A DNA stretch of 63,889 bases, filler included, from Circinaria calcarea (lineage: Eukaryota), in assembly GCA_051942165.1 (NCBI GenBank). It is 10 parts of 10 records of this genome, joined end to end, with 100 filler letters (N's around TTAATTAATTAA, not from the genome) between each part and the next. Parts side by side here need not be neighbours in the genome. Positions count along the whole stretch, not along the records: positions 32,061 to 38,361 come from JAVECS010001615.1; 9 more parts are not named here. One strand, written 5' to 3'. The notes under the pieces were generated by a model. That model saw only the letters and a program-made list of their open reading frames with translations. It was not told the origin of the DNA and ran no database searches. Below are positions 2,995-58,935 of the stretch, piece by piece. A program made the translations under genes and the position numbers. Position 1 is the first letter of the stretch. Every line of letters begins with the position of its first letter.

Positions 2995-4780
2995 TAGATA
3001 ACTTTAGCGGGCCCCACTTCGTCTGTCTTTAAAGCAATCCAATGAAATGTTCAACCGGACTAAAACCAATTACTACCTGATGTGTTAACCTAGTACCATG
3101 GTGATCGAAATTCTATCCTAATTATAAATGACATGGTAGCGCTACCGAACCTCCGGACCCGTTGGTATCTTTTCACTAAATCAGCTCTGGGACCAAAAAT
3201 CTTGCTATTGAGAAGCTGGCCGGCATTTATACGCCCATTACTTCAAGAGATAGACTTCGTATTGAATAATGGTAAGGATAATCTAGTATAGATTTTATGT
3301 ATTTTATAAAGCTTTTAATGGGTTATTTAATGACTTGCTACTTGCTAATTGCCAGCTCTAAAGCCTTATTGCCTATTGATTGCTGAGATCCCACCTCGAC
3401 ATAGGTTCCCTCCAAGCAGGAAGATTTCTTTACTACTTCATGAACACAGCGAACATCGTGGACGGTGACTACTCACTGAATATCCACCACTAAGTTTGCA
3501 TGAACTCTTCGACATCAAGGAGTTGGATGTCTGTACGGTGCGAGCTGTACTATTGATAGGTCTGTATTTACTGGTCATCCAAGGTAGTGTAACCTACAAG
3601 ACCGATTGGATGCATGGTGGCAGGTATGTACGGAGTAATCCATGCATTAAGGAAAAGGGAAACAGTCACAAAACGATCAGGGCGAGGCAGAATGAGGTAG
3701 GCCGTTGGCTAATATACTTATTAGGTGCTTCCAAGGACGTTACACAGCGTTTTAACCCACTAGCGCCAACAAAGAACCCTTGCACAACCCAATCAAACGG
3801 TCTTCCAGTGTCGCTGTTGAAATAAAGGCGATGCAGTTTTCCGATACCCAGCAAGTTTTGAACCGGAAGGGATCCTATTCGTCAATCAATAAGCCTGTGG
3901 TGCAGGTACAGCCTCTCTCGAAAATTTTCACAGAAATGGGCACATTAATACTGTCTCACTAACTCGGAGAAGCTCCTTGAGGAATCCACCTTTTATACCT
4001 TTTGACTAAGGAACAATAGTCCTGTTAGCACTTCGACGACGTGTAGTGAAGCAGCTTTGATCCTGTTTTATACTTGAATTTCGAAAACTAGCACGGCATC
4101 AACGTTTGGAGAGAGAATCTCGGACCAATCTCTCTACCTTTCACTCCAGGTCCATGTTGGCGTTCTGAAAAGTAACCTTTCCTTCCCGCGGTGACACATT
4201 ATGTCCTCGAATGTCAATTCATACTCGGTACATCCTCTCGCACATTACTGAGACCTTACTCTGTACTGAGAAGCTAAACAGACCTCTCCCACTATTCCCT
4301 GGACTCCGGCAGAGACAGCGGAACAGATCAAAAGGCGCGAAAGTCGCGAATCCCGGAAGGATACTTGCAAGGTTTGTTGACTTGATGATACCGCCGGTCC
4401 TATATGCCTCATATTAACCAGACACCGTGTATAGGCTTTTCCTTATCACTCGAAAAATGCAATAAGAAAGATGCATTCGGTATGAGGCGATCATTGTGGG
4501 TAGCAGGGTGTAGAAGCTAACTCAACTGTGGCTTTAAGAATTTGATAACCCAAGCAAAGGTAAGCTACGATGCGCTTGTTGGTTCCATATTCATGTAGTC
4601 ACTCACCAGTTGCTTAGGGACCGAACAAAGAACGACCCCGACGTCGACCACGTACAAGATTTAGGCCTAATAATACCTTTGAGAGGCGAGCAAGTCCATC
4701 CTTGGAGCAAAATGGCGTGTGTTGAACTCCATAATGGTAGCAACAACTGTGTGTATTGACAATTTGTTCAGGAGATCGAA

Positions 4781-5773
4781 ATGGTATTTGAGTTGCAACC
4801 AACACCGAGTGGATCAATGTATGCACGTTTCATGGAGGCTTTTCAAGTGAAGTATTGTAGAGAGTGCCGGACCTCCACATCCACAGTCGAAGATATAATC
4901 CTTTCCTGCGCGGCGTGCGAGGAAGCATATCACAGGCGCTGCTGCACCAGTCACATCGCCGATGACGCGCAATGGATTTGTGAAAGATGCAAAACCTTAG
5001 AATCACGGATCATCAGGGTGCTTAGCATCGATCAAGTCAATGGCTTTCCCCACCAAGAACATTCACCATCAAGGAAACGAGCTCGGCATAACGAAGCGAG
5101 TTACTACAGCAAGAATCCCCATGTGAAGAATCTGCAGAATTTACCGCAGAACCTAAAGTATGAGGGAGCGATTCTCCGTCTGAAGTGGCGCTTGCAATGG
5201 AACAATGCCGATTCGGAGAAAGAAGTCCAGGGGCTCAAGAACCAGATGCAGATAATGTCTCGTGACACCGCAAGTCTCCGCCGTGAGCTTGATCGAAAGA
5301 CAGGCATTCTCAAAGAAAACAACGACTTGATCAGCTGGTTAAAGACAAGGATGACAGAAGGTTCGAACTCCCCCAGCCCGTTGGAAAAGACCGTCGATGA
5401 ACAAGCCGCAACTGTGAATGGTTTGAAAAAGGAACTCGCAGATCAGGCCGCTTCGATTACTCGATTGACCGGGGCGGTGACCGAGAAAGATAACGCCATA
5501 AGCACATTTCAAAAGGAAGCCGCAAGAAGAGACGCTTCTATAGCAGCCTTGGAAACGCGCGCCGAGGGACACGGTTTTATTTGTGACGATCTGCAGAGAC
5601 AGAAGGAGAGACTCCAGCTCAAAGAGGACGAGCTACATCGGTGGGGAGAGGCGTTGGAACAGAGCAAAACGGAGCTGGTAGCGCAATTGACCGAGAGGCG
5701 GCAACTCTCCAATGTCCTCACGCAGGGCTTAGGTCAGAGCATTAGCAGACTATTGAAGGGACCCACAGGTTAG
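4781..5773 (+). CDS. PHD-finger protein with long C-terminal coiled coil
   Basis: C4HC3 pattern CRECx12CAACEEAYHRRCx12CERC followed by a heptad-rich helical region. 330-aa open ORF. Start codon uncertain. Confidence 0.7.
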   Translation: MVFELQPTPSGSMYARFMEAFQVKYCRECRTSTSTVEDIILSCAACEEAYHRRCCTSHIADDAQWICERCKTLESRIIRVLSIDQVNGFPHQEHSPSRKRARHNEASYYSKNPHVKNLQNLPQNLKYEGAILRLKWRLQWNNADSEKEVQGLKNQMQIMSRDTASLRRELDRKTGILKENNDLISWLKTRMTEGSNSPSPLEKTVDEQAATVNGLKKELADQAASITRLTGAVTEKDNAISTFQKEAARRDASIAALETRAEGHGFICDDLQRQKERLQLKEDELHRWGEALEQSKTELVAQLTERRQLSNVLTQGLGQSISRLLKGPTG

Positions 5774-27157: not shown

Positions 27158-28052
27158 ATGTCTGCTATCGGTCCAGAACTGCCACCTCACTTAGTTGCAA
27201 AGCGAAAAAGACAACAAGAAGAGCCAATTGATCAGCCAGTCTCGACTCGTTCACGCAGCACGTCTTCAAGTAGCGGTGCTGGGGAGAAGAGGAGATGCAT
27301 CATAGGTCCATCCCTACCACCAGCTGCCTTGAATGAAAGACCTCTCGATGACCCGGATTCCGATGCCGGCAGCGACAGCGACAGCGACCTAGGACCAGCT
27401 CCGCCTCCTGCGACGGGTCGTCTCGATCACCGAGCAGGTCTGCAGCATGGTAACTCTGGTATGGATGACGTCTTGGCTAAAGATACGGTCAAGAAACCTC
27501 AGCGAGAAGAGTGGATGCTTGTACCACCCAAGCAAGACGACTGGACGTCCCGAGTCGATCCTACCAAACTACGGAATCGAAAATTCAATACGGGCAAGGG
27601 TGCTAAGGCGCCGTCACAAAGTGGATCCGGTGATAATGCACTATGGACCGAAACGGCGGAGCAGAAGAGACAGAGACTGGAGGATGAAGTTATGGGTGTG
27701 AAGAAGCCCGCTCAGTTGGACCAGGATAGTAAGAAAGGCGGCAGAAGTGAGGCCGAAGCCCGGGAGACGGACAGAAGGATACGGGAGTACAATGTAGGGG
27801 ACTGCAGATCTAGGACTAGAAGAACTATAGCTGACATACCCTGTTTCATAGGAGAAGAATCGAAATTCCTCACTTTATAGCGAACACAAAAAGGCGACCC
27901 CAAAGGAACAGGAGGATGATCCAAGCAAGCGTGCCTTTGACAAGGAGAAAGATATTGGAGGTGGCATGAAGATTGGGCATGCTAAGAAGAAGGAATTACT
28001 GAGCAAGGCGGCGAATTTTGGATCAAGATTTGCTGGAGGAAACTATTTGTAA
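27158..28052 (+). CDS. GPALPP1-like / DUF3752 protein
   Basis: IGPELPPHL, IGPSLPP and LGPAPPP repeats, REEWMLVPP, LWTETAEQKRQRL. After an intron (about 27793-27851): EDDPSKRAFDKEKDI..FGSRFAGGNYL-stop. Confidence 0.88.
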
Positions 28053-31960: not shown

Positions 31961-32184
31961 NNNNNNNNNNNNNNNNNNNNNNNNNNNNNNNNNNNNNNNN
32001 NNNNTTAATTAATTAANNNNNNNNNNNNNNNNNNNNNNNNNNNNNNNNNNNNNNNNNNNNGTGGAAGGGGGGGTTAGATGGTCTGTTTTGTCTTAGAAGA
32101 TAGGGTTAGGATGTAGGGGGAGAGTCTGGTGTGCAATGGAACAGGGCCTTTATTATTATTTTCCAAGGCGCGAGTATAAATTAG

Positions 32185-33261
32185 TTACAGAGAGCTCTTG
32201 CTTCCCGAACGAAGTTCATTCACTTCACCACCACCTTCCCCTTCTTCCCCCCTATCCGGTTCCTTCCCCGGCGCTTCTGCCTTTTCCGGACACGCATCCA
32301 ACTCGTATCCCTGCCATGATCCCTCTAATTCCTCCCGCAAAGCATCCTTTTCCGTCGCAACTGCATGTCTTCCGATTTGCGCGTTGCCCCTTTCATCCAC
32401 AACGGTTTGATATTGTAGCAGGAGGGCGTCATAACGACGCCTTTTCCGGAAGATGAAGATGGAGAGGAAGAGTGCGCCTAGGAAGAAGACGATTAAGAGG
32501 GTAAGGATCGGGGCGAGAATGCGGGGAGGGAGCGAGGAGGAGGTATGGTTTGGCGCTTCAGTTCCTTGGGTGGAGGTAGTTGCGAGAGGCATGGATAGTG
32601 TGGAGGTTGGTAGAATAGTAGCGGGAGACGAAAAGCTGGATTGAGTTGCAGCAGCTTGGAAAACCACACCCCACGTTTGCGGTTGTATGCCATCAACTTT
32701 TTGGATGTTGAATTGGCCACTCGAGTAGAACGAAGAGTTTGGATTATTTATAGGACCTTGCTGGAGGTTGAAGTTGGACAAATTGAATGGTCCTCCATAG
32801 TTCAAGGGAACCGAAAGTGTACCGTTGGAACCAACCGAAGTATTGAAGACTATGTAGATGCATAAAAGTGTCAATACATTATTTGAAGACCACTGAAAGA
32901 GTACGTGTAGAAGCGCCTTAGGTCAAACTATAAGTGGACCTTGAGTAAAGAAACAAGAAACATAGATTGGATCCCAGTGATTCATAGAGGCACTAGTTTA
33001 GATCTACCAAGTAAAGTTTGAGTACATACCCAAAATCTGTTTGAAGTTGGGAGCAAGACCCGTGGTGAGCCAAAGCATGAGGCATGGCGATGTAAAATTC
33101 GGAGCATATGATTCCCACGTCACATTAAGGGTATCAAGGTAATTGTAGGTAGTTTCGCTTTGCGATTTAGTAGGATAGAGGAACTGGCCATATGGACTAT
33201 CTGATCCAGCAAGGCACTGGCCGCATAGTAGTAAAAGGAGGATATATGCAGGAGCTATCAT
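32185..33261 (-). CDS. Mid2-like single-pass cell-surface protein
   Basis: Signal peptide MIAPAYILLLLLCGQCLA, intron about 32850-33029, S/T-rich stalk, TM ILAPILTLLIVFFLGALFLSIFIF then RKRRR and an acidic tail. Confidence 0.7.
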
Positions 33262-35407
33262 GACTGTAAGCCGACGGAAACTTGCGTCTATTTCTCCATT
33301 AATGAGGATAGCTCGGGGGCAACCCTTCAATAAATGTAGCTGTACGGTACCGAGAGTACATTAGCGGCAAGGACAACCAGTGAATAATAGTTTGTGCCGG
33401 TCAGTAGAACGGGGCAAGAAAGCGATACCCACGCCGTTATGCGCAACTGCAGATCAACGGGTAGATGTGAAGGGGAATGGGGGGTGTTGCGCAGTGTCTC
33501 ACCATTAATTCTTCGAACACCGTTGGCCCGCCAAAAAAGCTTATGTTCTAGCCGCGCCATCCATTGGAAACAATGAGTAAAGTAGAGTGGGTTAAAATTA
33601 GTGACGAAGACGGTAAGTTATAGGAACTCAGAGATTGTCATCGCAAACTGATACTCAAATTCCGGAGTAGGGCAAACAGAATGATGCATGCAAAGGTCTA
33701 GTAGGAATATACAACCGCCGATCCGAGGCACCATGGACAAAGCATGAGGCTGTCAGCCACACACACAGAGAGGCTGCTCCGGGCTCTCAAATATATTTCC
33801 GGCGGCAAAGTGCAAGGCCTCATCACTTCCGAATGCTAACCAACACTTATGCAGGTGATTGTATGCAAGCCTATGGCTTGTCCCGTAATGCGAGACATCT
33901 ACCCCACAACATCGGAAGTATACTTTGGCGACGTCCATACTGACTTGTGGGGAGATGAAGAGATCGGGGCGTTAAGTGTGGGCCGTATTGTTTGTGGCCA
34001 ACTGCTACTTGTGCTGGTTCTAGAGATGTCGAGTCCAGGTCTTGAGCGCGTACCTGATCGGATGCAAGAGTCCCTTGAAGACATCTTTTGACCGCTATAC
34101 AAGAAGTCTTGGGTCAAATTGCCTGTAATGCGGGCTGAAATGATCTTCCCTAACAAACTAGTCATTCCATTGGGTAAGCAGAATCAAAGGAGGCGTAGTA
34201 GTAGGCTTAGTGTTCGAGTACACTGCAACTTCCATTTGCACCTCCGACCATGCATGGCAAGAACATGAACCAACAAAGGGAAACCTAGCATGGGGTTTAG
34301 GGTGCCTTCTCCATGGTGTGGCTATACAAGCCGCTGATGTTTAGAAGGATCTGGCGCAGTCGCACCAGAGTCGGTACAGGGAATTCAACCGGTGCTTTAA
34401 CATGCATACTTCATCATTCGTACAATAAAGAACAGAGCGATTCAGATTTTACAGTTCATTTGTCTGGGTTGAAGGGAAAGAAAAGAGCTGGCGTACAAAC
34501 TGCAGGACCATGTCAAAAGAAAAGCTTAGAGACACATAGTCGCCTAGAATAAGCCTCTCGAAGATGAAGCTGTTGGATAACAGAAGTCATTTCGCATCAA
34601 GTGATGATAGCATCATGCCCGATGCATGCGCCTTACCCGTGTGTGATAGCTGTTCCAGTGCTGCTGTATGCACCAGACTCGGAGGTGGCTCAGATGCCTC
34701 CGCCTTCACCAGCGTGCAGAAGCACTAAGTGGACGTCTGGCGATGGTCCTTGTCAGAGACATTAGCATAATGTGATCACAATCCTCGATGGTTTCCGATG
34801 TTGTTCGGATATCTGAAAGGTGGCCTGTATTCCGAGGTGGAGGATGAGCAGCAAAGTAGTGTTCACCCCGCTATACCTTCCTACTCCCCTCACCGTCCCT
34901 GTTGTACAAGAAAAAATGGGACGCCCACCGTATTTACTTGCCTAAGTATAGGCTCCAAATTTGTGAGGACCCCTTCTAACACTAGGGCTCTTCAGGCGTA
35001 AATTAGTGGGTGTGCCTACGGCGGGGTGAATTTTGCTGTCGCATGTTTTCTGTCACCCGCGTGGCAGCCTCTTATTAACTTCTAACATGGACATAAATCG
35101 AGATGATAACCCTAACTCTACAGCGAATACATTTTGCAGCCGAGAATACGAGATGCACTGGAGAGTTGTTTTAGGATAACATGGCTGATGGTGTGTGAAT
35201 GAGTAGGTCCCCGAGGCAATTTTCTGACTCAACGTTGTCGAGACAAAAACATTCAAAGCGCCACATTTCCTTCCTAAACTAAATCTCTTACTACTCATCG
35301 TACGCTCAACACCTTTGACGCATCGGTCTTCCCTTGGTCCAATAGGTTTCCTCTTTACTTGATAGGTCTCGCCTTTAAAGGGTCTTCTCAAGAACTTATC
35401 GAGTAGG

Positions 35408-37195
35408 ATGCCTACAACACGTATCACACTTTCTTTAAATAGCAAGCAGTCCCAAAGGGCACCTCTACTCGTATCATCCTCTACATCTCTTGATCCTACA
35501 AGCAATGACTCGTGCCGTGCTCTTGTAATCAAAACGGCCCAATCAAAGCTCCGGCTAAAGAAAGCATCTCGTGTCTTTGTGGCCGGTACGGGCAAAGAGC
35601 TTATCAACGAGTTCGACTGGAAGCATGCCCTCAAAGACGACGTGGTACTGCTAGTATCTGCAGGTGAGGAATATGTTGGCCTGAAGAAAGAGGAACCGAA
35701 AGCGAGCGATGATGACCCAACGGACATGGTGTCGTTACGCTTAGGAAACCCGGACTGCTCCATTGTCAATCTCGCTGATAGAGCCACCATTGACCCTTTA
35801 TCAATCACACAACTCGAAACCACAGCACATACCCTACCTGGGATTATCCATGCCGTTGCTCAACCAGATCTCCACCCAGGTACCAAATTCCCTATCGGTG
35901 CCGTATTCGTTTCGGATGGATGGATACACCCACCATTGATCGGTGGTGATATAGGCTGCGGCATGGCATGGTACAAGACGAAGCTCACTCCATCTCAAGT
36001 CGAAGGGGAAAAAGGAAGGAAATTAGCCGAAAAATTGCGTAGAGTCGAAGGACCATGGCGTACACAACAAAACAGGCTCACCTGGCTGACCGATTCTTCC
36101 ACAAGCGAGAGTTTTACTTGTCACAGTGCTGGGGAAGAGTGGGATGCCTCCCTCGGTACAATTGGCGCCGGTAATCACTTTGCAGAACTTCAGGTTGTCG
36201 AAGAAATCCTCGACGGCAATTGGAAAACCAACAATACGTTCAACCCTCAGCAGATACTCAACGAAGGCGAAGTCGTTCTCCTCGTACACTCTGGCTCTCG
36301 AGGTTTCGGTGGTGATATTCTTAAACGCTATACCTCTGACGACCGTACCAGTATGCGTTCCTCTGACCCCGCTGCATCCAATTACCTCGAAGAACACGAC
36401 CGTGCCTGCGCATGGGCAGTAAGAAACCGTGATCTGATTGCACTCCGCTTCCTCGCCTGTATCGAGCCTGGACAGGAATCGTGGGATCTTGGCATCAACG
36501 ACCCCAACTCCTCAACTACAGCCGAAGACATTCAGACCGCCGCCCGTGCGGTCGAATGCCGAAAAGTCGTTGACATCTGCCATAACAACGTCGAAGCCAC
36601 TTCTTGGCCGCCATCTCCTTCCTCCTCCACCGCCAATGCCACTTCCTCCAAACCTCGTGTCTTCATCCACCGTAAAGGCGCCGCTCCAACCCATCATCTC
36701 CTTCCATCCTCTACCACAAACCCCTCCCACCAACAAACCCAACCACAACCCCTATCCATCCTCCCTCTTCCCGGTTCTCGTGGCACCCCAACCCTTATCC
36801 TCCACCCTCTTCACACACATCAAAACAGCTACGGCCTCCATCACGCCCTCAGCCTCGCCCACGGCGCCGGCCGTGCCCTCTCCCGCGCAAAAGCCCTCGC
36901 TTCCCTGCCCGCCAAATATAACCACAAACCGGATGACCTGCTTCGTGGCGATTTCGTGAAGACGAACGCAAAGGGAAATAAGAATGTCGCGAGGGATGAC
37001 AGTGGGAGAAATGAAGGGGAAAAGGTGAAGGGGGGCGTGTGGGTCGTTTGCGAGGAAAAGGCACTGGTGTGGGAGGAGGCCGTGGAGGCGTACAAGGATG
37101 TTTGGGACGTAGGGGCTGATCTGGTGCAGGCGGGGGTGGCGGAGAGAGTCGGCTGGTGTAGGGGAAGGGTGAGTTATAAAGTTAGAAAGTCGTGA
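35408..37195 (+). CDS. rtcB: RtcB-family 3'-phosphate/5'-OH RNA ligase (release-factor-H-coupled type) with extra N-terminal domain; intronless
   Basis: Catalytic motifs in order: QPDLHPG, GGDIGCG, LGTIGAGNHFAELQ, LVHSGSRG, HNNV, IHRKGA, LPGSRG, SLAHGAGR (guanylylated His), EE..EAYKD and C-terminal SYK. Confidence 0.92.
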   Translation: MPTTRITLSLNSKQSQRAPLLVSSSTSLDPTSNDSCRALVIKTAQSKLRLKKASRVFVAGTGKELINEFDWKHALKDDVVLLVSAGEEYVGLKKEEPKASDDDPTDMVSLRLGNPDCSIVNLADRATIDPLSITQLETTAHTLPGIIHAVAQPDLHPGTKFPIGAVFVSDGWIHPPLIGGDIGCGMAWYKTKLTPSQVEGEKGRKLAEKLRRVEGPWRTQQNRLTWLTDSSTSESFTCHSAGEEWDASLGTIGAGNHFAELQVVEEILDGNWKTNNTFNPQQILNEGEVVLLVHSGSRGFGGDILKRYTSDDRTSMRSSDPAASNYLEEHDRACAWAVRNRDLIALRFLACIEPGQESWDLGINDPNSSTTAEDIQTAARAVECRKVVDICHNNVEATSWPPSPSSSTANATSSKPRVFIHRKGAAPTHHLLPSSTTNPSHQQTQPQPLSILPLPGSRGTPTLILHPLHTHQNSYGLHHALSLAHGAGRALSRAKALASLPAKYNHKPDDLLRGDFVKTNAKGNKNVARDDSGRNEGEKVKGGVWVVCEEKALVWEEAVEAYKDVWDVGADLVQAGVAERVGWCRGRVSYKVRKS

Positions 37196-37549
37196 TGGTA
37201 GTGCGTGTAGGTGTACGTATCAAAGTTTACGGGGACCGCCAACCGTATGATAGTACGCTCTCAAGCTAGAATAATGTAGTAAATCAACCAAAATCAAATC
37301 AATCATGCAAACCATAAAACCGACCATACGAAACTCTTCCAGAATTCTCACCGTTGAAATTTCCCTAATTTAGAGGCTGTGTGTGGCACCCGGCAAGCAC
37401 CACCCCAAGCACCACCCCCAAAAAAAACCACCCCCTCAACCGTATTGAAAACCTCCGTCTCTACACATCAGCAGCGCTGACTTATCCTCCAAGAATCCCC
37501 AATTATCCCAAATTATCCCAAAAAGGAGGAAAAGAAAAGACCAAAAATT

Positions 37550-37646
37550 TGCTTCCAGACGGAGTCGAACCGGCGACCTCGTCATTACCCCCGATTCCAA
37601 ATCATGTGGTACTAGTGACGCGCTCTACCAACTGAGCTATAGAAGC
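37550..37646 (-). tRNA. tRNA-Thr(AGU) with 24-nt intron
   Basis: Acceptor GCTTCTA/TGGAAGC-A. D arm GCTC-AGTTGGTA-GAGC. Anticodon stem CGTCA/TGACG with CT-AGT-A. Intron 37586-37609 at the canonical 37/38 position. T loop TTCGACT, with one C.U mismatch in the T stem. TTTTT Pol III terminator downstream. Confidence 0.93.
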
Positions 37647-38491
37647 TTTGATTTTCATGGCATGAAGGGTTTAATAACAAGTTTTATTTCATTTTGCAAA
37701 ACAAAAAGACACTTGGGCGATTGATTGGTAAAGATTCTTCCACGCAAGGTATTTTCACACATAGATAGATATGGTAGATATACACATTCCTACGTGCAGA
37801 AACAATAAAAAAAAGTGGTAAATGTCATGCTTTCTACGGAAGAGTACCGCCTGTACCATACCATACCGGGTATACAAAGAGCCATGTAGTGTAAATGCTT
37901 TTATACCCGAAGCTAGATACCCCGACCTCGAGCAACGGTACGAGCTTTTTTACCAAGATTATTATAGGGAATCGAAATGACATCGTCCACAAGGGACATG
38001 GAAACGTGAATTGTCCTTTTCGGTAATCAGAAGGGGGCGAGTAAGCTACCAGCAATCTGGTTCTATGGAGAGGGAAAAGCAATAGTGGAAGGAAGAGGCG
38101 AGAAGGCTTGGTGCAAGATTCCGTGGACGGAGTGGGTTTTCTATTATCTTGGCTGCCTACTGTAAATGGATCCGTGTGTAGGAAGATCATTTCGAAGCCT
38201 CCATGTTCCGGGCATTATGCAATCGACTCTACTGTAAGCAAAAGCACATTGATGCAGACGCAATCAGAACCGAGGATCTGGCATTTCATTCCCTATCTGA
38301 ACCGTCTTTTGCAAAAAACACAAAAACACCCGATCGTACCACATTGAACACAGTCCGCCAANNNNNNNNNNNNNNNNNNNNNNNNNNNNNNNNNNNNNNN
38401 NNNNNTTAATTAATTAANNNNNNNNNNNNNNNNNNNNNNNNNNNNNNNNNNNNNNNNNNNNTTTTCCCATTTGAAAAACAAAACAAAAGTC

Positions 38492-40311
38492 CTATAGCTT
38501 CGCCCTCACCCCCTTCTTCGCCTCCTCCTGCGCCTGCAGCTTCAGCACCCTCCTCAGAATCTTCCCGCTCACGCTCTTCGGAATCTCATCCACAAACCTG
38601 ACGCCTCCCCGTAACCGTTTATGATTCGCCACCTTGGCCGCCAACCATTGCACAATCTCGTCTTCGGTCTCCTTGCTCGCCCCAACGCCCTTTTCCGGTA
38701 CGACATAAGCCCGCGGCACTTCTGTGGCCTGCTCCTCGTCGGGCACACCGATGACCGCGACATCGTTGATCAGGGGATGGCTGACCAAAAGTCCTTCTAG
38801 TTCCGCCGGAGGGACTTGGAAGCCTTTGTACTTGATTAATTCCTTGATGCGGTCTGTGATGTAGAAGTTGCCATCTTTGTCTTGGTAGCCGACGTCGCCG
38901 GTTTTGAAGTATCCGTCTTCCATTAAAGCGTTCTTGGTGCCTTCTGGGTTGTTTAGGTAGCCTTTGAAGACGTTTGGGCCTTTGATCCACAGTTCGCCGG
39001 GCTCTCCAATAGGGACTTCGGTTCCCTCAGGTGACATGTATTTGGCGGTTTGATTGGGTAGCATACGACCGACGGCGCCGATTGTAGAATACCATAATTC
39101 CCATGGCTATTTGAGATTTAATACATGATTAAAACTAATTTAGAGGATAGAGACGACCAACTTGTGTATGAGTAGTAGGGCTAGTTTCGCTTAAGCCATA
39201 ACCCTGTTTGACTGGCACCTTTAACCGTTTATATACAGCGTCCACCAATTCTCGTGTCAGAGGAGCAGCTCCGGAATTGAGCATTTTGAGAGTGCTGAGA
39301 TCATACTTATCGACAACGGGATGCTTTGAGAGTAATAAAACCGTAGGAGGAACGACGTATGCATAAGTGATCTTGTGCTTCTGAATGATGGCGCAGAACT
39401 TTTCAATCTCGAATTTGGGCATTATTACTAAGGTCAAACCGCTATAAAGAGATTGATGAACCAAGCAGTTGAGACCTGCTTTAGATCAGCTATAGGTGCG
39501 AGAACAAGTCAATCAGTAAAACTACCGTATATATGGAAAAAGGGTAGATACGCGAGAATATTATCCCCTTTACCATCTGGGCCGCCATTCCAGCTGACAT
39601 TGTCCGATTCTCCCACCTTGAGCATTAAGATGTTGGATGTTATGTTTTCATGGCTGAGCATGACCCCTTTCGGATAGCCTGTTGTTCCAGAGGAGTAGAC
39701 TAGAAAGGCCAGATCCTCCTTTGGGTTCATTCTGGTCCGGCGATATCTCGATGTTCCTGCTACATTTCTTATCGACGTAAAGTGCTTGAATCTGACCGTC
39801 TCGTCTCGCTCATCCCCCATCAAGATGATTCGATCCTCGGGTATACCGATTTGTTTCGCAGCCTCCCGGGCAACCGGAAGAAAGGGCTTTTGCGTCACTA
39901 GAGCCTTTGCCCCCGAGTCTCTCAGCTGGAATGCGAGCTCGTTGGCGGAATAACTCGGGTTTGCGGGAGACACAATGCCTCCTGCCCAGTGAGCTCCCCA
40001 TGTCACACTGGGCATATCGACGCAATTGGGCGTAAAGAGGCCCAGCACATCGCCCTTCTGCCACTCCCATACCGACTTAAGCCCTTTGCCAAAGTCAACC
40101 GCTGTCGACTTGACCTCGGCGTACGTATAAGAGCGATTGGTATCAGCATCACGGTAGATGACTGTTCAGGATGCGTGTCAGTTGAGGTCGTTTAATTCTC
40201 CGAGGGCCTACCTTTGTCGTCTGGAAAGTGTTTGTCCTTTCGTTCAAAGAGGAAACCCCACAGATCGGTGGTCGGCACTTGGAAGGGCGGATATGTGGAT
40301 TCTGTAGGCAT
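38492..40311 (-). CDS. 4-coumarate-CoA-ligase-like / phenylacetyl-CoA ligase, peroxisomal
   Basis: YSSGTTGYPKG, LPFFHIYG, QGYGLSETSP, GELWIKGPN, FKTGDVG, DRIKELIKYKG and PKSVSGKILRR. C-terminal PTS1 AKL. ATG 40311. Confidence 0.92.
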
Positions 40312-40599: not shown

Positions 40600-41620
40600 A
40601 TGGCGACATTACGGTCCCCTACCCTCCGTTACCTATTCGGAGGCCGCTCTCAATGTCAGCGAGGTGTTCAGCGTAGGTGGGCCCAAGTTCACGATGTGCG
40701 CTTTCTTGCCACTCATCGACAGCCCGACCGGGTCATTGAGAAGTACAAGGAGAAGCTAGATAGAAAGGCCAGAGAGTACGCCGGTTTGGTGACCGCCCGC
40801 AATCATTGCTTCTCTGACCAAAGGCTAATTACGACACAGAAAAGGACTGAAAAGCGTGGACGAACTAAAGGAAGTCTACAAGGACAAAATCCAGAGTCTC
40901 AAGAAGAAAGCCACCATCGTTACCACCCCTTCCCCTTCCATCCCATCAACATCACCCTTCCCCCGGCCTCCCCCAGCACCTCGGATACCTCTCAACCCTC
41001 CTTCGGACCCTCTATCACAACCTACCAACCAGCCTGCTCCCCCAAAGGTCTCAAACTCTCCCGGCGTAAAGACCCTTTCCTCTTTCATCGACATCCCCAA
41101 AACCCTCGAACTCCCCCAGAAAGAGATAGAGTACATCTGGCGGCTGCGACATGTCTCCGCCCCGCAATCGCTCTGCGCGACCATCCCTTACTCCACCTAT
41201 AAACGCATCGAATCCACCGCTCGGCGGCATCCGCAATTCATCCTTCCGCTGCTTCGTGAAGGCCAAGGCGCCGAGATCCATTTTCTACAGTGGACCTTTC
41301 CATCACCGACAACTACAACCGTTCTGTTCACGCACCTTGCAGAATTCAAGCTGAGAGGGGAATACAGTCAACCGCATACCACCGTGACACATCACCTGGA
41401 TCTTGCCGGACCCAAGGACCTGGTACTCCTACAAGGCACCGTGGTTGAGGGCAGAGGGGTAACCGTAGATGAAGGAAAATGGTTATTGATGTGTTTGCAA
41501 AAATTCTATGGCGGTGGGGAGGATAGAGGGGAGAGGAAGAAGCTCCTGGCACAATTCAGTCGGGGAGACGGAGGGTTCAAGGTAGAAGAATTATTGGAGG
41601 AGGCGGAGAAGATTGTATGA
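40600..41620 (+). CDS. ATP11: Mitochondrial F1-ATPase assembly factor
   Basis: QRRWAQVHDVRFLATH..KYKEKLDRKA, intron about 40776-40840, then VKTLSSFID, IWRLRH, PQFILPL, EIHFLQW and LLMCLQKFY. Confidence 0.92.
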
Positions 41621-42546: not shown

Positions 42547-43589
42547 ATGGGATCCTTCAAGTTCTCCCAACATGAAGTTCGAACAGAGCTGAATAAGGTA
42601 TGGGATGAATCGAGACTTCACAGGCCCCCACAGATCGCGAGTCTGTCCGACGCAGCAGGCTGATATCGTTCCAGCAATGGATCAGGCCAGACTGTTCCCG
42701 ATCGTTGTCATATCATCTGTATACACTCTACCTCTTTACTTGCAACAATCTGAAAGATATTGTTATCGTGGGCTTTTCGTTCGGAGTTCTCTGCACTTTG
42801 GCCAATCCGGTCATCGGCTTCAATGAGAATATAAGTCTGGTGGAGACCCTATACAAGGCGCCAGCGATGCTGTTCTGGTCTTGGATCAACCTCCTCCTAT
42901 TCAACCTTCACAACCAACGCCATGACGACGCAATCCGCGAAGATAGCATCAACAAGCCGTGGCGGCCCCTCCCAGCAAAAAGGTTGACCGCTGGAGAAGC
43001 AACTAACTTGTTATACGCCACATATCCGGTGGCATTACTCTCGAGCGTTTATTTCGGGGGTTTTGGGCCATGCTTGGCGGAAGCTTTCTGTTGCCTCTGG
43101 TATAACGAGTGGGGAGGCGCCGAGAACCCAGTTCTCAAGAATTTTTTGAACGCAGCAGGATTTACGTGCTTTCTAGCGGGACCGTTAGAGATCGCTATCG
43201 GTAGCACAAGCCTTATCCACTTCAACAAGGCGATGCAATGGTTGGCGGTGATTGGATCGGCTATCTTCGCGACGGTTCATACGCAGGACTTTCGGGATCA
43301 AGCCGGGGATAGAGCACGGGGACGGCGTACCATACCACTTGTCATCGGCGACGATCCTGCCAGATGGAGCGTCGTAGTCGCTGTGGTTCTATGTTCCTAC
43401 GCAGGGGGCGCATTCTGGCGGCTGGGGATCATCGGCTTTGTATGGTCAGCGGTTCCAGGATGCATGATGAGTTACAATCTCCTGCATCGAAAAACAGTAC
43501 AAGGGGACATTCTGACCTGGAAGATTTGGCCGATTTGGATAGCGTCTTTCTTTTTCCTCCCCCTGATTAAGATGTACTCGAGCATCTGA
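42547..43589 (+). CDS. UbiA-family prenyltransferase / membrane terpene cyclase-like protein
   Basis: NQ....IREDSINKPWRPLP and QDFRDQAGDRARGRRTIP motifs with multiple TM segments. Inferred first exon 42547-42597 and intron 42598-42674 supply an in-frame ATG. Confidence 0.82.
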
Positions 43590-55727: not shown

Positions 55728-57513
55728 ATGGCAAGTAACAGGCAAAAGATTCTTGTTGTTGGTGCTGGACCGGTTGGTGCTCTGGCAGCTCTGTATGCCG
55801 CTGTTCGTGGGGACGACGTCGAGCTCTATGAGCTTCGGGGAGGCAGGTCAACTTTCTTTATACCTCTAGGCACGGAAGAAAGTCTGGTCCAATGCTGGTT
55901 CAAAACGAAGATATCATACGAGGTCATTTCTTTTGTTTCCAATCCTCTTACCTACTTGGAAATCCTGTCCAAAGATAAGACATAGTTCTGCAGAATAAGA
56001 TATGCACACAACATGCCCATATATCCAGCCGTCGTTCCTAGTTTGTCGTGGATGGACTCTGGTCTAGAAACTGGATGCTCTATTATTGACATCAGCCCAG
56101 CTTCTGTATTCTCACTAATCTATGTTCGAATAAAGACCTTCGAGACCCCTCAACTACCCCTTTGAACTTCACCAAATCCATCAACCTTGCTCTCTCAGAG
56201 CGCGGGATCAACTCCATGAGAAATGCCAAATGTGACGGCCTTATTGAAGCTGTGCTGGAGGAGACTATACCGATGTATGGCCGCATGATCCATGGGCGAA
56301 GGAAGGCTGGTGAACTCTATCAAGAGCCTCAAGCATACGATGTACATGGCCGAGTGAGTACCGACTTCCTTCAACAAGGAAACAAGAGGATTAAACGAGC
56401 ATAGTTCATTCGAGCCGTTGATCGTGCAGGTCTTAACAAACGTCTGCTCGACGCCCTGGAGAAAATGCCCAACGTAACTTTTCATTTCAACCACAAGCTC
56501 ACGGGTGCCGACTTCAACAAGAACATTGCCTGGTTCGAGCAGCGTTCCCATGCACCCAAAACTGACCATGCCCAAAATCCTACCCAGCCTTCCCTCAGCA
56601 AGTCCGACCAACACCGCGCAAAGGAAATCGAAGTTACCTTTGACTTCATGATTGGTGCCGACGGCGCCCATTCTGCAGTCCGCTACCACCTCATGAAATT
56701 CTCCCGCCTCAACTACCAACAAGAATACATCGACACCCTTTGGTGTGAATTCCATATTCCTCCTATCCCCCCTCTGGCGTCGTCCCCGGACCCTTCCCAC
56801 ACCTTCGCCATATCTCCTAATCACCTGCATATCTGGCCCGGCGGCTCCTTCATGTTCATCGCCATTCCATCCCTCGACCGGTCCTTCACCTGCACCCTCT
56901 TCGCCCCTTCCTCCACCTTCTCCTCACTCGAATCCTCCCCCACCACCACCCTCGCCATCTTCTTCGCCACCAATTTCCCCGGCGTCAGCCCCGAACTCAT
57001 CTCCCCGACCGATCTCCTCGACCAATTCACCAGCAACCCGCACCTACCCCTTATCAGCATCAAATGCACGCCCTACCACCACGCCTCTAGCGTCGTCATC
57101 CTCGGCGACGCCGCCCATGCCATGGTCCCCTTTTACGGCCAAGGCATGAACGCCGGCCTCGAAGATGTCCGCGTCCTCTTCGATTTTCTCGATGCCCACA
57201 ACGTCTACACCGCCCACTCGACTCTCGCCCAGCGTACCGCTCGCGCCGCTGCCCTGGAAGCCTACACGGCCCACCGCACGCCCGACGCCGCCGCCGTCAA
57301 CGATCTCGCACTGCGCAACTACACGGAAATGCGCGCAGGCGTCACGTCGCCGCTGTACAAGGTCCGCAAGACGCTCGAGGAGAGCGTAGATCGGTGGGTG
57401 CCGGCGCTCGGGTTCGCGACGCAGTACAGCCGGGTCAGCTTTGCGAACGAGCGGTATAGCGAAGTGGAGAGGGCGGTGAGGAGGCAGGGGAGGGTGCTGA
57501 TGGGGTTGTTGGG
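55728..57513 (+). CDS. BNA4: Kynurenine 3-monooxygenase (3' end truncated)
   Basis: [55 protein letters not shown] and [22 protein letters not shown]. Introns 55843-56135 (GC-AG) and about 56354-56404. Confidence 0.95.
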
Positions 57514-58935
57514 NNNNNNNNNNNNNNNNNNNNNNNNNNNNNNNNNNNNNNNNNNNNTTAATTAATTAANNNNNNNNNNNNNNNNNNNNNNNNNNNNNNN
57601 NNNNNNNNNNNNNTACCCATCCCATCCCCGTCCCTTACCATCATAGTACATCTCTCCTCTCTACTACCTTGCTCTCCTCCCTACTACTCTACTATGCTCT
57701 CATTCCTCAACGAGCCCCAGAGCTTGACTACATATATTCAACAATGAATGCAAATGTCACCGTCTCCTCGTCTCCTCCATCTCTCAACTCTACCTCCTCT
57801 CCTCTCTCTCCCAACTCCTCCAACGGGGTCTCAAAGACCAGCATAAAATTTCTCGATCAAACACACATGAAATGAAGGCAAAGCACAGTAGCCAACTTCA
57901 GATATTCTACGGTAGGACATCAACGGGGGATGCGGGTCGAGTGGGCGCGAAGGTAGGGGCACGAAGACGGAGAACATCGAGGATAAGGGGAATGACTAGC
58001 CCCCCAAGTGGGGATTTTTAGCAATTTCAGGGGTTTAGAGCTGGAGATGAATGATCAAGATCAAGATCGAAGTAAGGAGGGGGAATGCTTTGGAAGTCAG
58101 GTAGAGTTTGAAAGATACAACTGGCATCTAGCATCTTCCATCCGACTACCTTGAACCATAATCTTTTCTAAGTCATCAAATTCCCTATCTCATCCTCCTA
58201 CTCCTACTCCTACTCCTTTCCCACCTATCCTCTGCCCTTCTGCCACCCTCATAAGCGCGACAACTATGAAAAGGACTCGAAACCGAGAACCGAAAAGGAT
58301 AACCGCACAATCTACGCAGAAACACTTGGCTTATTATCATCGTCATCATGTTCATTATCAGATATTATCCAACTATTTCCAAATTCGATTTCAAGCACAA
58401 GCAAGTGGCATGAGCAAGAGCAAGAGCAAGAGCAACTTTTTCTTCCCACTTCCCCCTGTCGACCCCTCTCAAACCAGGGGACCACAAGGAGCACAGGGCA
58501 GTCTAAAATACAAACATCGAGTTGCCTCCCTTATCGGGTAAGCCCCTTAGCAGCTAAAAAGGACATGGCAAGACTCGAAGATAAAAAACAACAGAGGCCG
58601 TTAACAAAAAGTAATTTGGTGATGGTACAAAGCAAGAAAAAAGGTAATTAATGCTCAGGCCCTGCCTGGCAGATAGTGCGTGCTCTAGTCAACATTCCGG
58701 CAAAACAGAAGTAAAACGAGAAACGCTCTAAATGCCATGCGTGAACATCATCAATGCCAACTGCCCCAGCCCCAGCTCCCGCCTCCTTTCCTCCAGACAC
58801 AGCAAAAGGCCCCGAAATCGCACGCACATACCACTCAAGGTCTAAGATAGAACGACTAGATATGCAGAAACCACTGGACGGTGGTTTAAAAATATCAGAC
58901 ATTCGTAATCTTTGGACCGTACGATGGTTACGCTC

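Follow-up and report, generated by a model that had tools for sequence, protein, structure and literature searches.

The genome of Circinaria calcarea (assembly GCA_051942165.1) contains an intronless gene for an RtcB2-like RNA ligase in which the catalytic domain is preceded by a predicted beta-grasp domain. The gene is located at 35408..37195 (+) in a DNA stretch of 63,889 nucleotides (nt), referred to as the window, which consists of 10 joined parts of 10 records; positions 32,061 to 38,361 are from JAVECS010001615.1. Relatives of the protein are found in fungi and other eukaryotes, and its lineage appears to be an old eukaryotic branch, patchily kept, that stands beside the bacterial group coupled to the release factor homolog PrfH. 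The protein is proposed to be an active ligase that repairs endonuclease-broken RNA in parallel with the fungal tRNA ligase Trl1. A probability of roughly 0.7 is assigned to this reading of identity, lineage and ligase-repair function, with the substrate excluded.

Gene structure and catalytic domain

The features of the gene and the encoded protein are as follows.

35408..37195 (+): whole gene, single exon, beta-grasp plus RtcB2-like RNA ligase, 595 amino acids (aa) plus stop (open reading frame (ORF) listing, Pfam, NCBIfam, 16-ortholog alignment)
35408..35692 (+): N-terminal beta-grasp domain, residues 1-95 (AlphaFold2 (AF2) model of residues 1-110, VIA-align, domain hidden Markov model (HMM))
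35693..35761 (+): low-confidence acidic linker, residues 96-118 (predicted local distance difference test (pLDDT) <50 for residues 92-110; length variable among orthologs)
35762..37192 (+): RtcB catalytic domain, residues 119-595 (Pfam, NCBIfam, Foldseek)
35948..35959 (+): D181-I-G-C184, Asp and Cys of the metal site, E. coli-type D75/C78 (alignments; invariant in 63/63 rows)
36173..36178 (+): N256-H257 in the GNHF motif, E. coli-type N167/H168 (alignments)
36287..36289 (+): H294 in the HSGSRG motif, E. coli-type H185 (alignments)
36581..36583 (+): H392 in the HNN motif, E. coli-type H281 (63-row alignment)
36779..36781 (+): R458 in PGSRG, signature of the RtcB2 family (R in 58/58 RtcB2-family rows)
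36860..36862 (+): H485 in HGAGR, position of the guanylylated histidine, P. horikoshii H404, E. coli-type H337 (alignments)

The ORF begins with ATG and runs without an internal stop over 595 aa. Over its entire length, M1 included, the encoded protein is collinear with 16 orthologs from fungi (alignment A1, 17 rows). Because of this end-to-end collinearity, the start codon is considered correct and the gene intronless.

The window protein matches the Pfam family PF01139 (RtcB) with 180.1 bits (E 1.1e-52; cut-off 27), a profile score that lies far above chance. The AF2 model of the whole protein has a pLDDT of 74.4. In a Foldseek search with this model, human RTCB (8odo_A) was matched with E 1.2e-24 and template modelling scores of 0.53/0.62, and the Pyrococcus horikoshii enzyme (4dwq_A) with E 1.1e-22. 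Canonical archaeal and metazoan RTCB (HSPC117) and E. coli RtcB1 thus share the fold of the window protein (E 1e-24 to 1e-21). The sequence scores against solved chains are modest, with 74 bits for P. horikoshii RtcB and 68 bits for human RTCB. Lineage-specific, low-complexity inserts are found in the catalytic domain at about residues 425-450 and 505-540, which correspond to segments of low pLDDT. By profile, catalytic residues and fold, the window protein is a member of the RtcB superfamily.

The catalytic positions were placed by pairwise alignment to P. horikoshii RtcB and by a 63-row MAFFT alignment. E. coli-type numbering refers to a 408-aa Escherichia RtcB1 paralog (row L081). Residues D154, H156, D181, C184, N256/H257, H294 and H485 of the window protein correspond to D65, H67, D95, C98, N202/H203, H234 and H404 in P. 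horikoshii. In L081, the counterparts of D181, C184, N256, H257 and H294 are D75, C78, N167, H168 and H185, and those of R298, H392, H485, R489 and R493 are R189, H281, H337, R341 and R345. All ten columns mapped on L081 are invariant in the 63 rows. The Asp, Cys and His residues are presumed to be metal ligands, apart from the histidine that we take to carry GMP. The catalytic residues are common to the window protein and RTCB/RtcB1, and the same presumably holds for the chemistry.

The earlier note on this DNA, made from the sequence alone, had described an uninterrupted 595-aa ORF at these exact coordinates with the full set of RtcB active-site motifs. Both statements agree with the ORF listing, the ortholog alignment and the invariant columns, and all listed motifs are present. 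Its account of the domain make-up was correct for the catalytic RtcB part but overlooked the N-terminal beta-grasp domain, the main structural difference from bacterial RtcB2.

RtcB2-type motifs and coupling to PrfH in bacteria

The two top-scoring NCBIfam models for the window protein are both of the PrfH-coupled type, namely NF007153 (260.6 bits, below its curated cut-off of 407) and TIGR03073, release_rtcB (207.2 bits, below its cut-off of 271.8). Among the rows shown, all RtcB2-family members and the window protein contain the motifs PDLHPG, GNHFAELQ, HRKGA, PGSRG and SLAHGAGR. The corresponding motifs of RtcB1-type paralogs read PDVHLG-like, GNHFIE, TRKGA and PGSMG. Position 458 separates the two types completely, with R in 58/58 RtcB2-family rows and M in 5/5 RtcB1-type rows. 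The same contrast (GSMG/TRKGA versus GSRG/HRKGA) distinguishes RTCB/RtcB1 from the window protein, which also falls into a clade separate from the RtcB1 paralogs (stem 1.2). With 68-74 bits against solved RTCB/RtcB chains and 260 bits against the RtcB2 model, the window protein is not closest to RTCB. These data indicate an RtcB2-like protein rather than canonical RTCB, in line with the RtcB2 wording that the earlier note had recognized in the motifs. Nothing suggests that the protein depends on archease or on a DDX1 complex, although no test was aimed at this.

The motif variant HGAGRKW, aligned with window residues 485-491, occurs in bacterial RtcB2 and in Naegleria and is not found in the fungal, plant and Arcella proteins.

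To compare the bacterial gene context, one genome per prokaryotic species was subjected to a pattern scan, which yielded 80 loci with 28-35% identity to window residues 120-595. PrfH was detected above the NCBIfam cut-off in 47 of 57 ORFs directly downstream of rtcB2 genes at these 80 nearest loci, and in none of three upstream ORFs. At the other 23 loci, no suitable downstream ORF was available or the sequence ended too early. Bacterial RtcB2, known from the rtcB2-prfH operon of E. coli ATCC 25922 (PMC9304027), shares a clade with the window protein at a Shimodaira-Hasegawa-like approximate likelihood-ratio test (SH-aLRT) support of 99. Both have the motif forms PDLHPG, GNHFAELQ, HRKGA and PGSRG and complete catalytic residues. 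They differ in size: bacterial RtcB2 comprises about 370-390 aa, whereas the 595-aa window protein contains the added beta-grasp domain and low-complexity inserts.

The N-terminal beta-grasp domain

Residues 1-95 are conserved across all 17 rows of alignment A1. The AF2 model of residues 1-110 alone has a pLDDT of 89.6 and the order strand-strand-helix-strand-helix-strand, with strands at residues 3-10, 17-23, 55-58 and 79-84 and helices at 36-47 and 68-74. M1, N11, K47, L48, G62, S84, G86 and G91 are invariant or nearly so in a 50-row alignment, and the end of the first helix bears a conserved basic stretch, K47-L48-R-x-K-K.

VIA-align was used to compare the domain with 48,161 chains. The CIDE-N domain of FSP27 was matched with a Z score of 10.2 and a root-mean-square deviation of 2.1 over 78 of 82 residues. 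Further matches are DREP3 (Z 10.0), Drep4 (9.1), a PKC-iota/Par6 PB1 entry (8.8) and a DCX domain (8.7). Sequence identity in these structural matches is 12-18%. Foldseek gave no match at E<=0.001, so that the fold assignment rests on VIA-align; the best Foldseek matches (about 5e-3) agree in kind. The model thus points to a beta-grasp domain of the CIDE-N/PB1/DCX type. CIDE-N, PB1 and doublecortin domains share its fold but no sequence-family match, and a function cannot be read from the fold. With residues 1-125, no Pfam family was found at E<=1 and a protein atlas search returned no usable match. Matches to KHA, below threshold, occur only in two distant relatives, P0174 (E 0.24) and P0199 (E 0.052). 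A homodimer prediction for the domain, computed without the alignment, spoke neither for nor against self-association (score 0.00, mark 0.32).

An HMM of the domain matches 26 of 33 eukaryote-type rows, none of 25 bacterial rows and none of 5 RtcB1 rows. The seed contained 18 of the 26 matched rows. The eight outside the seed are a chytrid, Actinomortierella, Naegleria, two EukProt rows and three unnamed rows (one marginal, 7.5e-4). No match was obtained for seven eukaryote-type rows, namely Basidiobolus, Ancoracysta, Euplotes and four short ones without a name. The domain is present in fungi, Arcella, Riccia, Naegleria and Ploeotia. Since the fusion is common to fungi, Amoebozoa, a plant and Discoba, it argues for one origin of the eukaryotic lineage.

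A search for the domain among proteins shorter than 327 aa gave 47 matches, all close relatives with 52-77% identity, eight of them with PF01139. Many of the remaining short matches have about 100-130 aa and are located on long contigs. In nine such ORF calls (P0285, P0291, P0302, P0314, P0324, P0286, P0290, P0322 and P0309; about 92-132 aa, contigs up to 1.1 Mb), which comprise the beta-grasp domain only, homology extends to just past GEE(Y/F)VG and is followed by a stop or divergence. To judge from their sequences, these are probably not stand-alone genes but first exons of orthologs that are interrupted by an intron where the domain ends. Unlike these presumed intron-bearing orthologs, the window gene has no intron between the beta-grasp and ligase parts.

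In three gene models, a further domain is encoded ahead of beta-grasp-RtcB, namely a histone deacetylase (P0157), an arrestin-N domain (P0141) and an Arf GTPase (P0080). Most likely, adjacent genes have been merged in these models. Synteny with an Arf gene, an idea derived from P0080, was discarded after tblastn gave no Arf match in the window.

Taxonomic distribution and phylogeny

In a word-indexed search, 8000 candidates were scored, of which 5967 proteins reached E<=0.001. The best 120 of these all contain PF01139, share 52-83% identity with the window protein and are nearly all full length. Among the matches listed, organism names are those of fungi throughout, mostly Lecanoromycetes and Dothideomycetes, which makes a lecanoromycete the most likely host. 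An exhaustive search of cluster representatives gave 2613 matches at E<=0.001 and 185 at E<=1e-30, and the taxonomic spread was read from 30 representatives. Fungal representatives are Vezdaea and Ascobolus (Ascomycota), Tilletia (Basidiomycota), Actinomortierella (Mortierellomycota), Basidiobolus and four chytrids (Zopfochytrium, Blyttiomyces, Chytridiales sp. and Phlyctochytrium). Outside the fungi, Arcella (Amoebozoa), Riccia (a liverwort), Naegleria and Ploeotia (Discoba), Ancoracysta, Euplotes and EukProt/MMETSP transcripts are represented. By these names, relatives occur in fungi of five phyla, and also in Amoebozoa, a liverwort, Discoba and a ciliate.

A FastTree phylogeny was computed from 159 rows: the window protein, 42 of the 80 bacterial loci picked for spread, nine RtcB paralogs from five bacterial genomes and 107 of 155 candidates. 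Candidates shorter than 340 aa or without GNHF or H[GT]AGR were dropped, and Ascobolus was wrongly lost at this step. The RtcB2 family comprises 150 rows (support 99) and includes a eukaryote-type group of 90 rows (support 95). A second reconstruction with 63 rows was performed in IQ-TREE under LG+C20+F+G4 by posterior mean site frequencies, with a short search. Here, the RtcB2 family consists of 58 rows including the window protein (SH-aLRT 99, stem branch 1.2) and is set apart from the RtcB1 paralogs. All 25 bacterial-type rows are placed together (support 86). A group of 18 rows (support 93) unites the window protein with all 12 named fungal rows and five unnamed rows, and contains no named non-fungal eukaryote. 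The outgroup consisted of bacterial RtcB1-type paralogs, and named archaeal or metazoan RTCB were not among the rows.

One bacterial row behaves differently in the two trees. L001, a Francisellaceae metagenome-assembled genome (MAG) with rtcB2 at 3953..5086 and prfH at 5083..5727, was flagged for atypical amino-acid composition. Its RtcB2 groups with eukaryote-type rows in FastTree, at the unresolved base of the 90-row group, but joins the bacterial rows once site heterogeneity is modelled.

The eukaryotic rows are not nested within the sampled bacterial RtcB2 but are sister or basal to the bacterial members. When the 33 eukaryote-type rows were forced into one clade, the log-likelihood was 2.77 higher than in the free search (approximately unbiased test, p-AU 0.555); a single eukaryotic clade is thus not rejected by these sequences. 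Within fungi, the RtcB2-type gene looks vertically inherited. As the eukaryotic rows lie outside the sampled bacterial RtcB2 and fungi of five phyla cluster, any bacterial origin of the eukaryotic lineage would be ancient, and such a transfer may have run in either direction.

The earlier note had proposed a second, probably bacterially derived repair route in this fungus, to be examined in a phylogeny with RtcB1, RtcB2 and RTCB. The phylogeny, run with bacterial RtcB1 and RtcB2 and without named RTCB rows, places the protein in the RtcB2 clade, as the motifs had suggested. It speaks against derivation from bacteria in this fungus, since the gene is part of a broad eukaryotic clade that is not nested in bacterial RtcB2. 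Grouping with vertically inherited RTCB, named in the note as the outcome that would overturn its proposal, was not found for canonical RTCB, but inheritance does appear vertical within the protein's own eukaryotic lineage. Its expectation that related fungal proteins might be in databases is borne out by at least 120 close relatives listed and by the eukaryotic RtcB2s in the accessible text of PMC9304027.

Relation to earlier reports

The accessible text of Tian et al. 2022 (PMC9304027) reports 98 eukaryotic RtcB2s, mostly from fungi and plants, and predicts a role in 40S repair. According to the same text, neither a toxin nor a PrfH equivalent is known for eukaryotes. These proteins are almost certainly the same group as the window protein. 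In databases, orthologs are named 'release factor H-coupled RctB family protein' or '3'-phosphate/5'-hydroxy nucleic acid ligase'. The gene is hence one more member of a group that is already in databases and in print, and the family is under-appreciated rather than unrecognised. For the eukaryotic members, the accessible part of Tian et al. gives a count and a prediction only, with no domain architecture, phylogeny or experiment, and does not mention an N-terminal domain. A literature search for RtcB and 'beta-grasp' returned only papers on other subjects, judged by their titles. Three points appear to add to prior knowledge, namely the fusion with a beta-grasp domain, the occurrence across eukaryotes with monophyletic fungi, and a position as sister to the bacterial group instead of within it.

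In excerpts of two other papers (PMC13247085; PMC12699882), the major fungal phyla are stated to lack RtcB-type ligases and to use Trl1 alone. Trl1 is pursued as an antifungal target, partly for the lack of a fungal RtcB, as set out in the available text of PMC10946435. In a 2026 preprint on fungal tRNA ligases, a phrase search found no mention of RtcB homologs. A conserved, catalytically intact RtcB2-type ligase in many fungi would mean that a second RNA-sealing chemistry is present. This raises the questions of which breaks are mended, which toxins or stresses make them, and whether inhibition of Trl1 could be blunted.

Possible function and alternative explanations

Judged by its conserved active site, the enzyme is probably active and would join RNA 3'-phosphate or 2',3'-cyclic phosphate ends to 5'-OH ends in a GTP/Mn2+-dependent reaction. 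A location in the cytosol or nucleus is predicted because the conserved N-terminus forms strand 1 of the modelled domain and leaves no room for a presequence. A mitochondrial protein that repairs mitoribosomes was set aside for the same strictly conserved N-terminus. The most likely substrate, following Tian et al., would be small-subunit ribosomal RNA (rRNA) cut near the decoding centre, with a probability somewhat short of an even chance. On this view, Dom34/Hbs1/Rli1, the general rescue factors of eukaryotes, would take over from PrfH and split the stalled ribosome, and the beta-grasp domain would mediate docking to a protein or to the ribosome. In a more specific and rather doubtful version, beta-grasp-RtcB2 proteins would have been retained since early eukaryotes for a kind of ribosome repair that needs no PrfH. 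Once the rescue factors have split a ribosome whose 18S rRNA is broken in or close to the decoding centre, the domain would bring the ligase to the 40S subunit or to a partner, where the rRNA would be resealed. If this is true, fungi, plants and protists would meet colicin-E3-like ribotoxins that are still undiscovered.

Several points weigh against the proposed identity, lineage and function. Both NCBIfam scores fall short of the curated cut-offs. Bacterial RtcB2 has HGAGRKW, in contrast to HGAGRA(L/M)S in the fungal proteins (HGAGRAL in the window protein), and this difference next to the catalytic histidine may bear on substrate or partner recognition. No PrfH came up at E<=10 when an HMM from 47 PrfH sequences of bacteria was run against the six-frame translation of the whole 63.9-kb window, in agreement with the earlier note, and the available text of PMC9304027 describes PrfH from bacteria only. 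Bacterial RtcB2 thus has a PrfH partner, whereas the window protein has a eukaryotic host and no PrfH in the window. The coupling that defines RtcB2 is absent there, and substrate specificity is therefore not simply transferable. As to the trees, the other eukaryotic rows form an unresolved basal grade in IQ-TREE, so that the deep eukaryotic order is unsettled; 11 of the 33 eukaryote-type rows are unnamed and were assigned after the tree was seen, and a long outgroup branch determines the root. According to the available text of PMC9304027, no eukaryotic toxin is known to cut the 18S decoding centre. Finally, Trl1 reseals sarcin-loop breaks in yeast ribosomes in vitro, as stated in the accessible part of a preprint (10.64898/2026.05.26.727988), which weakens the need for a second ligase in large-subunit repair.

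The main rival to a 40S substrate is the repair of tRNA or mRNA breaks. The protein would then be a one-step back-up to Trl1 that reseals cuts made by anticodon nucleases of the zymocin or PaT type or by stress RNases. RtcB enzymes generally join tRNA halves, and E. coli RtcB can replace yeast TRL1 (PMC10946435, available text). The complete catalytic residues fit such a role, and the missing PrfH in the window removes the only link to ribosomes. However, the protein belongs to the RtcB2 family rather than the tRNA-active RtcB1 or RTCB types, and in the accessible text of PMC9304027 bacterial RtcB2 is reported to be specific for damaged small subunits; repair of this kind is unlikely, though it deserves serious attention. 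Far less probable is that the protein acts in canonical RTCB's role as the ligase of tRNA or HAC1 splicing. An intron-containing tRNA-Thr gene 355 bp downstream and a chemistry suited to the products of the splicing endonuclease would agree with this. Against it stand the 68 bits to human RTCB and GSRG in place of GSMG, which argue for another type, and the three-domain Trl1 carried by fungi of three phyla (PMC10946435, available text).

Equally improbable is a drift to a non-ligase or altered activity, such as capping of nucleic-acid 5'-phosphates, or to a regulatory or scaffolding protein. Paralog-specific activities are found within the RtcB family; Maughan and Shuman are said to have described 5'-phosphate capping by Myxococcus RtcB3 in 2015. 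A beta-grasp domain of the protein-interaction type would also suit such a role, yet catalytic residues that are invariant over a very wide phylogenetic span argue for the ancestral chemistry. The least credible alternative, and one that is largely refuted, holds that this fungus or its close kin recently acquired the gene from bacteria by horizontal transfer, or that bacterial DNA contaminates the assembly. In its favour, the closest relatives that have been characterised are bacterial, and FastTree put the Francisellaceae MAG at the unresolved base of the eukaryote-type group. This row joins the bacterial group under the site-heterogeneous model, however, and identity to bacterial proteins is only 28-35%. 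Orthologs are present in fungi of five phyla and in four further groups of eukaryotes, the beta-grasp fusion is common to eukaryotes only among the rows examined, and spliced genes, an intron-bearing tRNA and a GC content that matches the window surround the ligase gene.

Genomic neighborhood

The other genes annotated in the window are listed below.

38492..40048 (-): AMP-binding gene (acyl-CoA synthetase / 4CL-like), at least 3 exons; the extent covers three pieces and the 5' end is not delimited
37550..37646 (-): tRNA gene with a 24-nt insert in the anticodon loop (Rfam, 51.7 bits)
40856..41620 (+): ATP11 (F1-ATPase assembly factor) homolog, an ordinary eukaryotic gene
42705..43589 (+): UbiA-family prenyltransferase fragment, likewise an ordinary eukaryotic gene
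27158..27880 (+): DUF3752 protein, also an ordinary eukaryotic gene

In the AMP-binding gene, the next one downstream of the ligase gene, the exons match Pfam profile positions 50-219, 227-330 and 348-384 in succession, together with the C-terminal domain. They are separated by short introns of about 44 and 70 nt, and the gaps between the ORF pieces are GT..AG. The tRNA gene, on the strand opposite to the ligase gene, was detected by Rfam and missed by ARAGORN, which reported no tRNA. It is interpreted as a tRNA-Thr(AGU) gene whose intron follows position 37. Its position next to an RNA ligase gene is probably a coincidence. Because of the spliced AMP-binding gene and the intron-bearing tRNA, contamination is regarded as ruled out, as the earlier note had argued from the same kind of flanking genes, and the setting of the ligase gene is eukaryotic.

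The GC content of the ligase gene region is 0.48-0.50, inside the range of the window. The most extreme bin of the window, 56001..58000, has a GC content of 0.52 and a strongly negative GC skew of -0.239.

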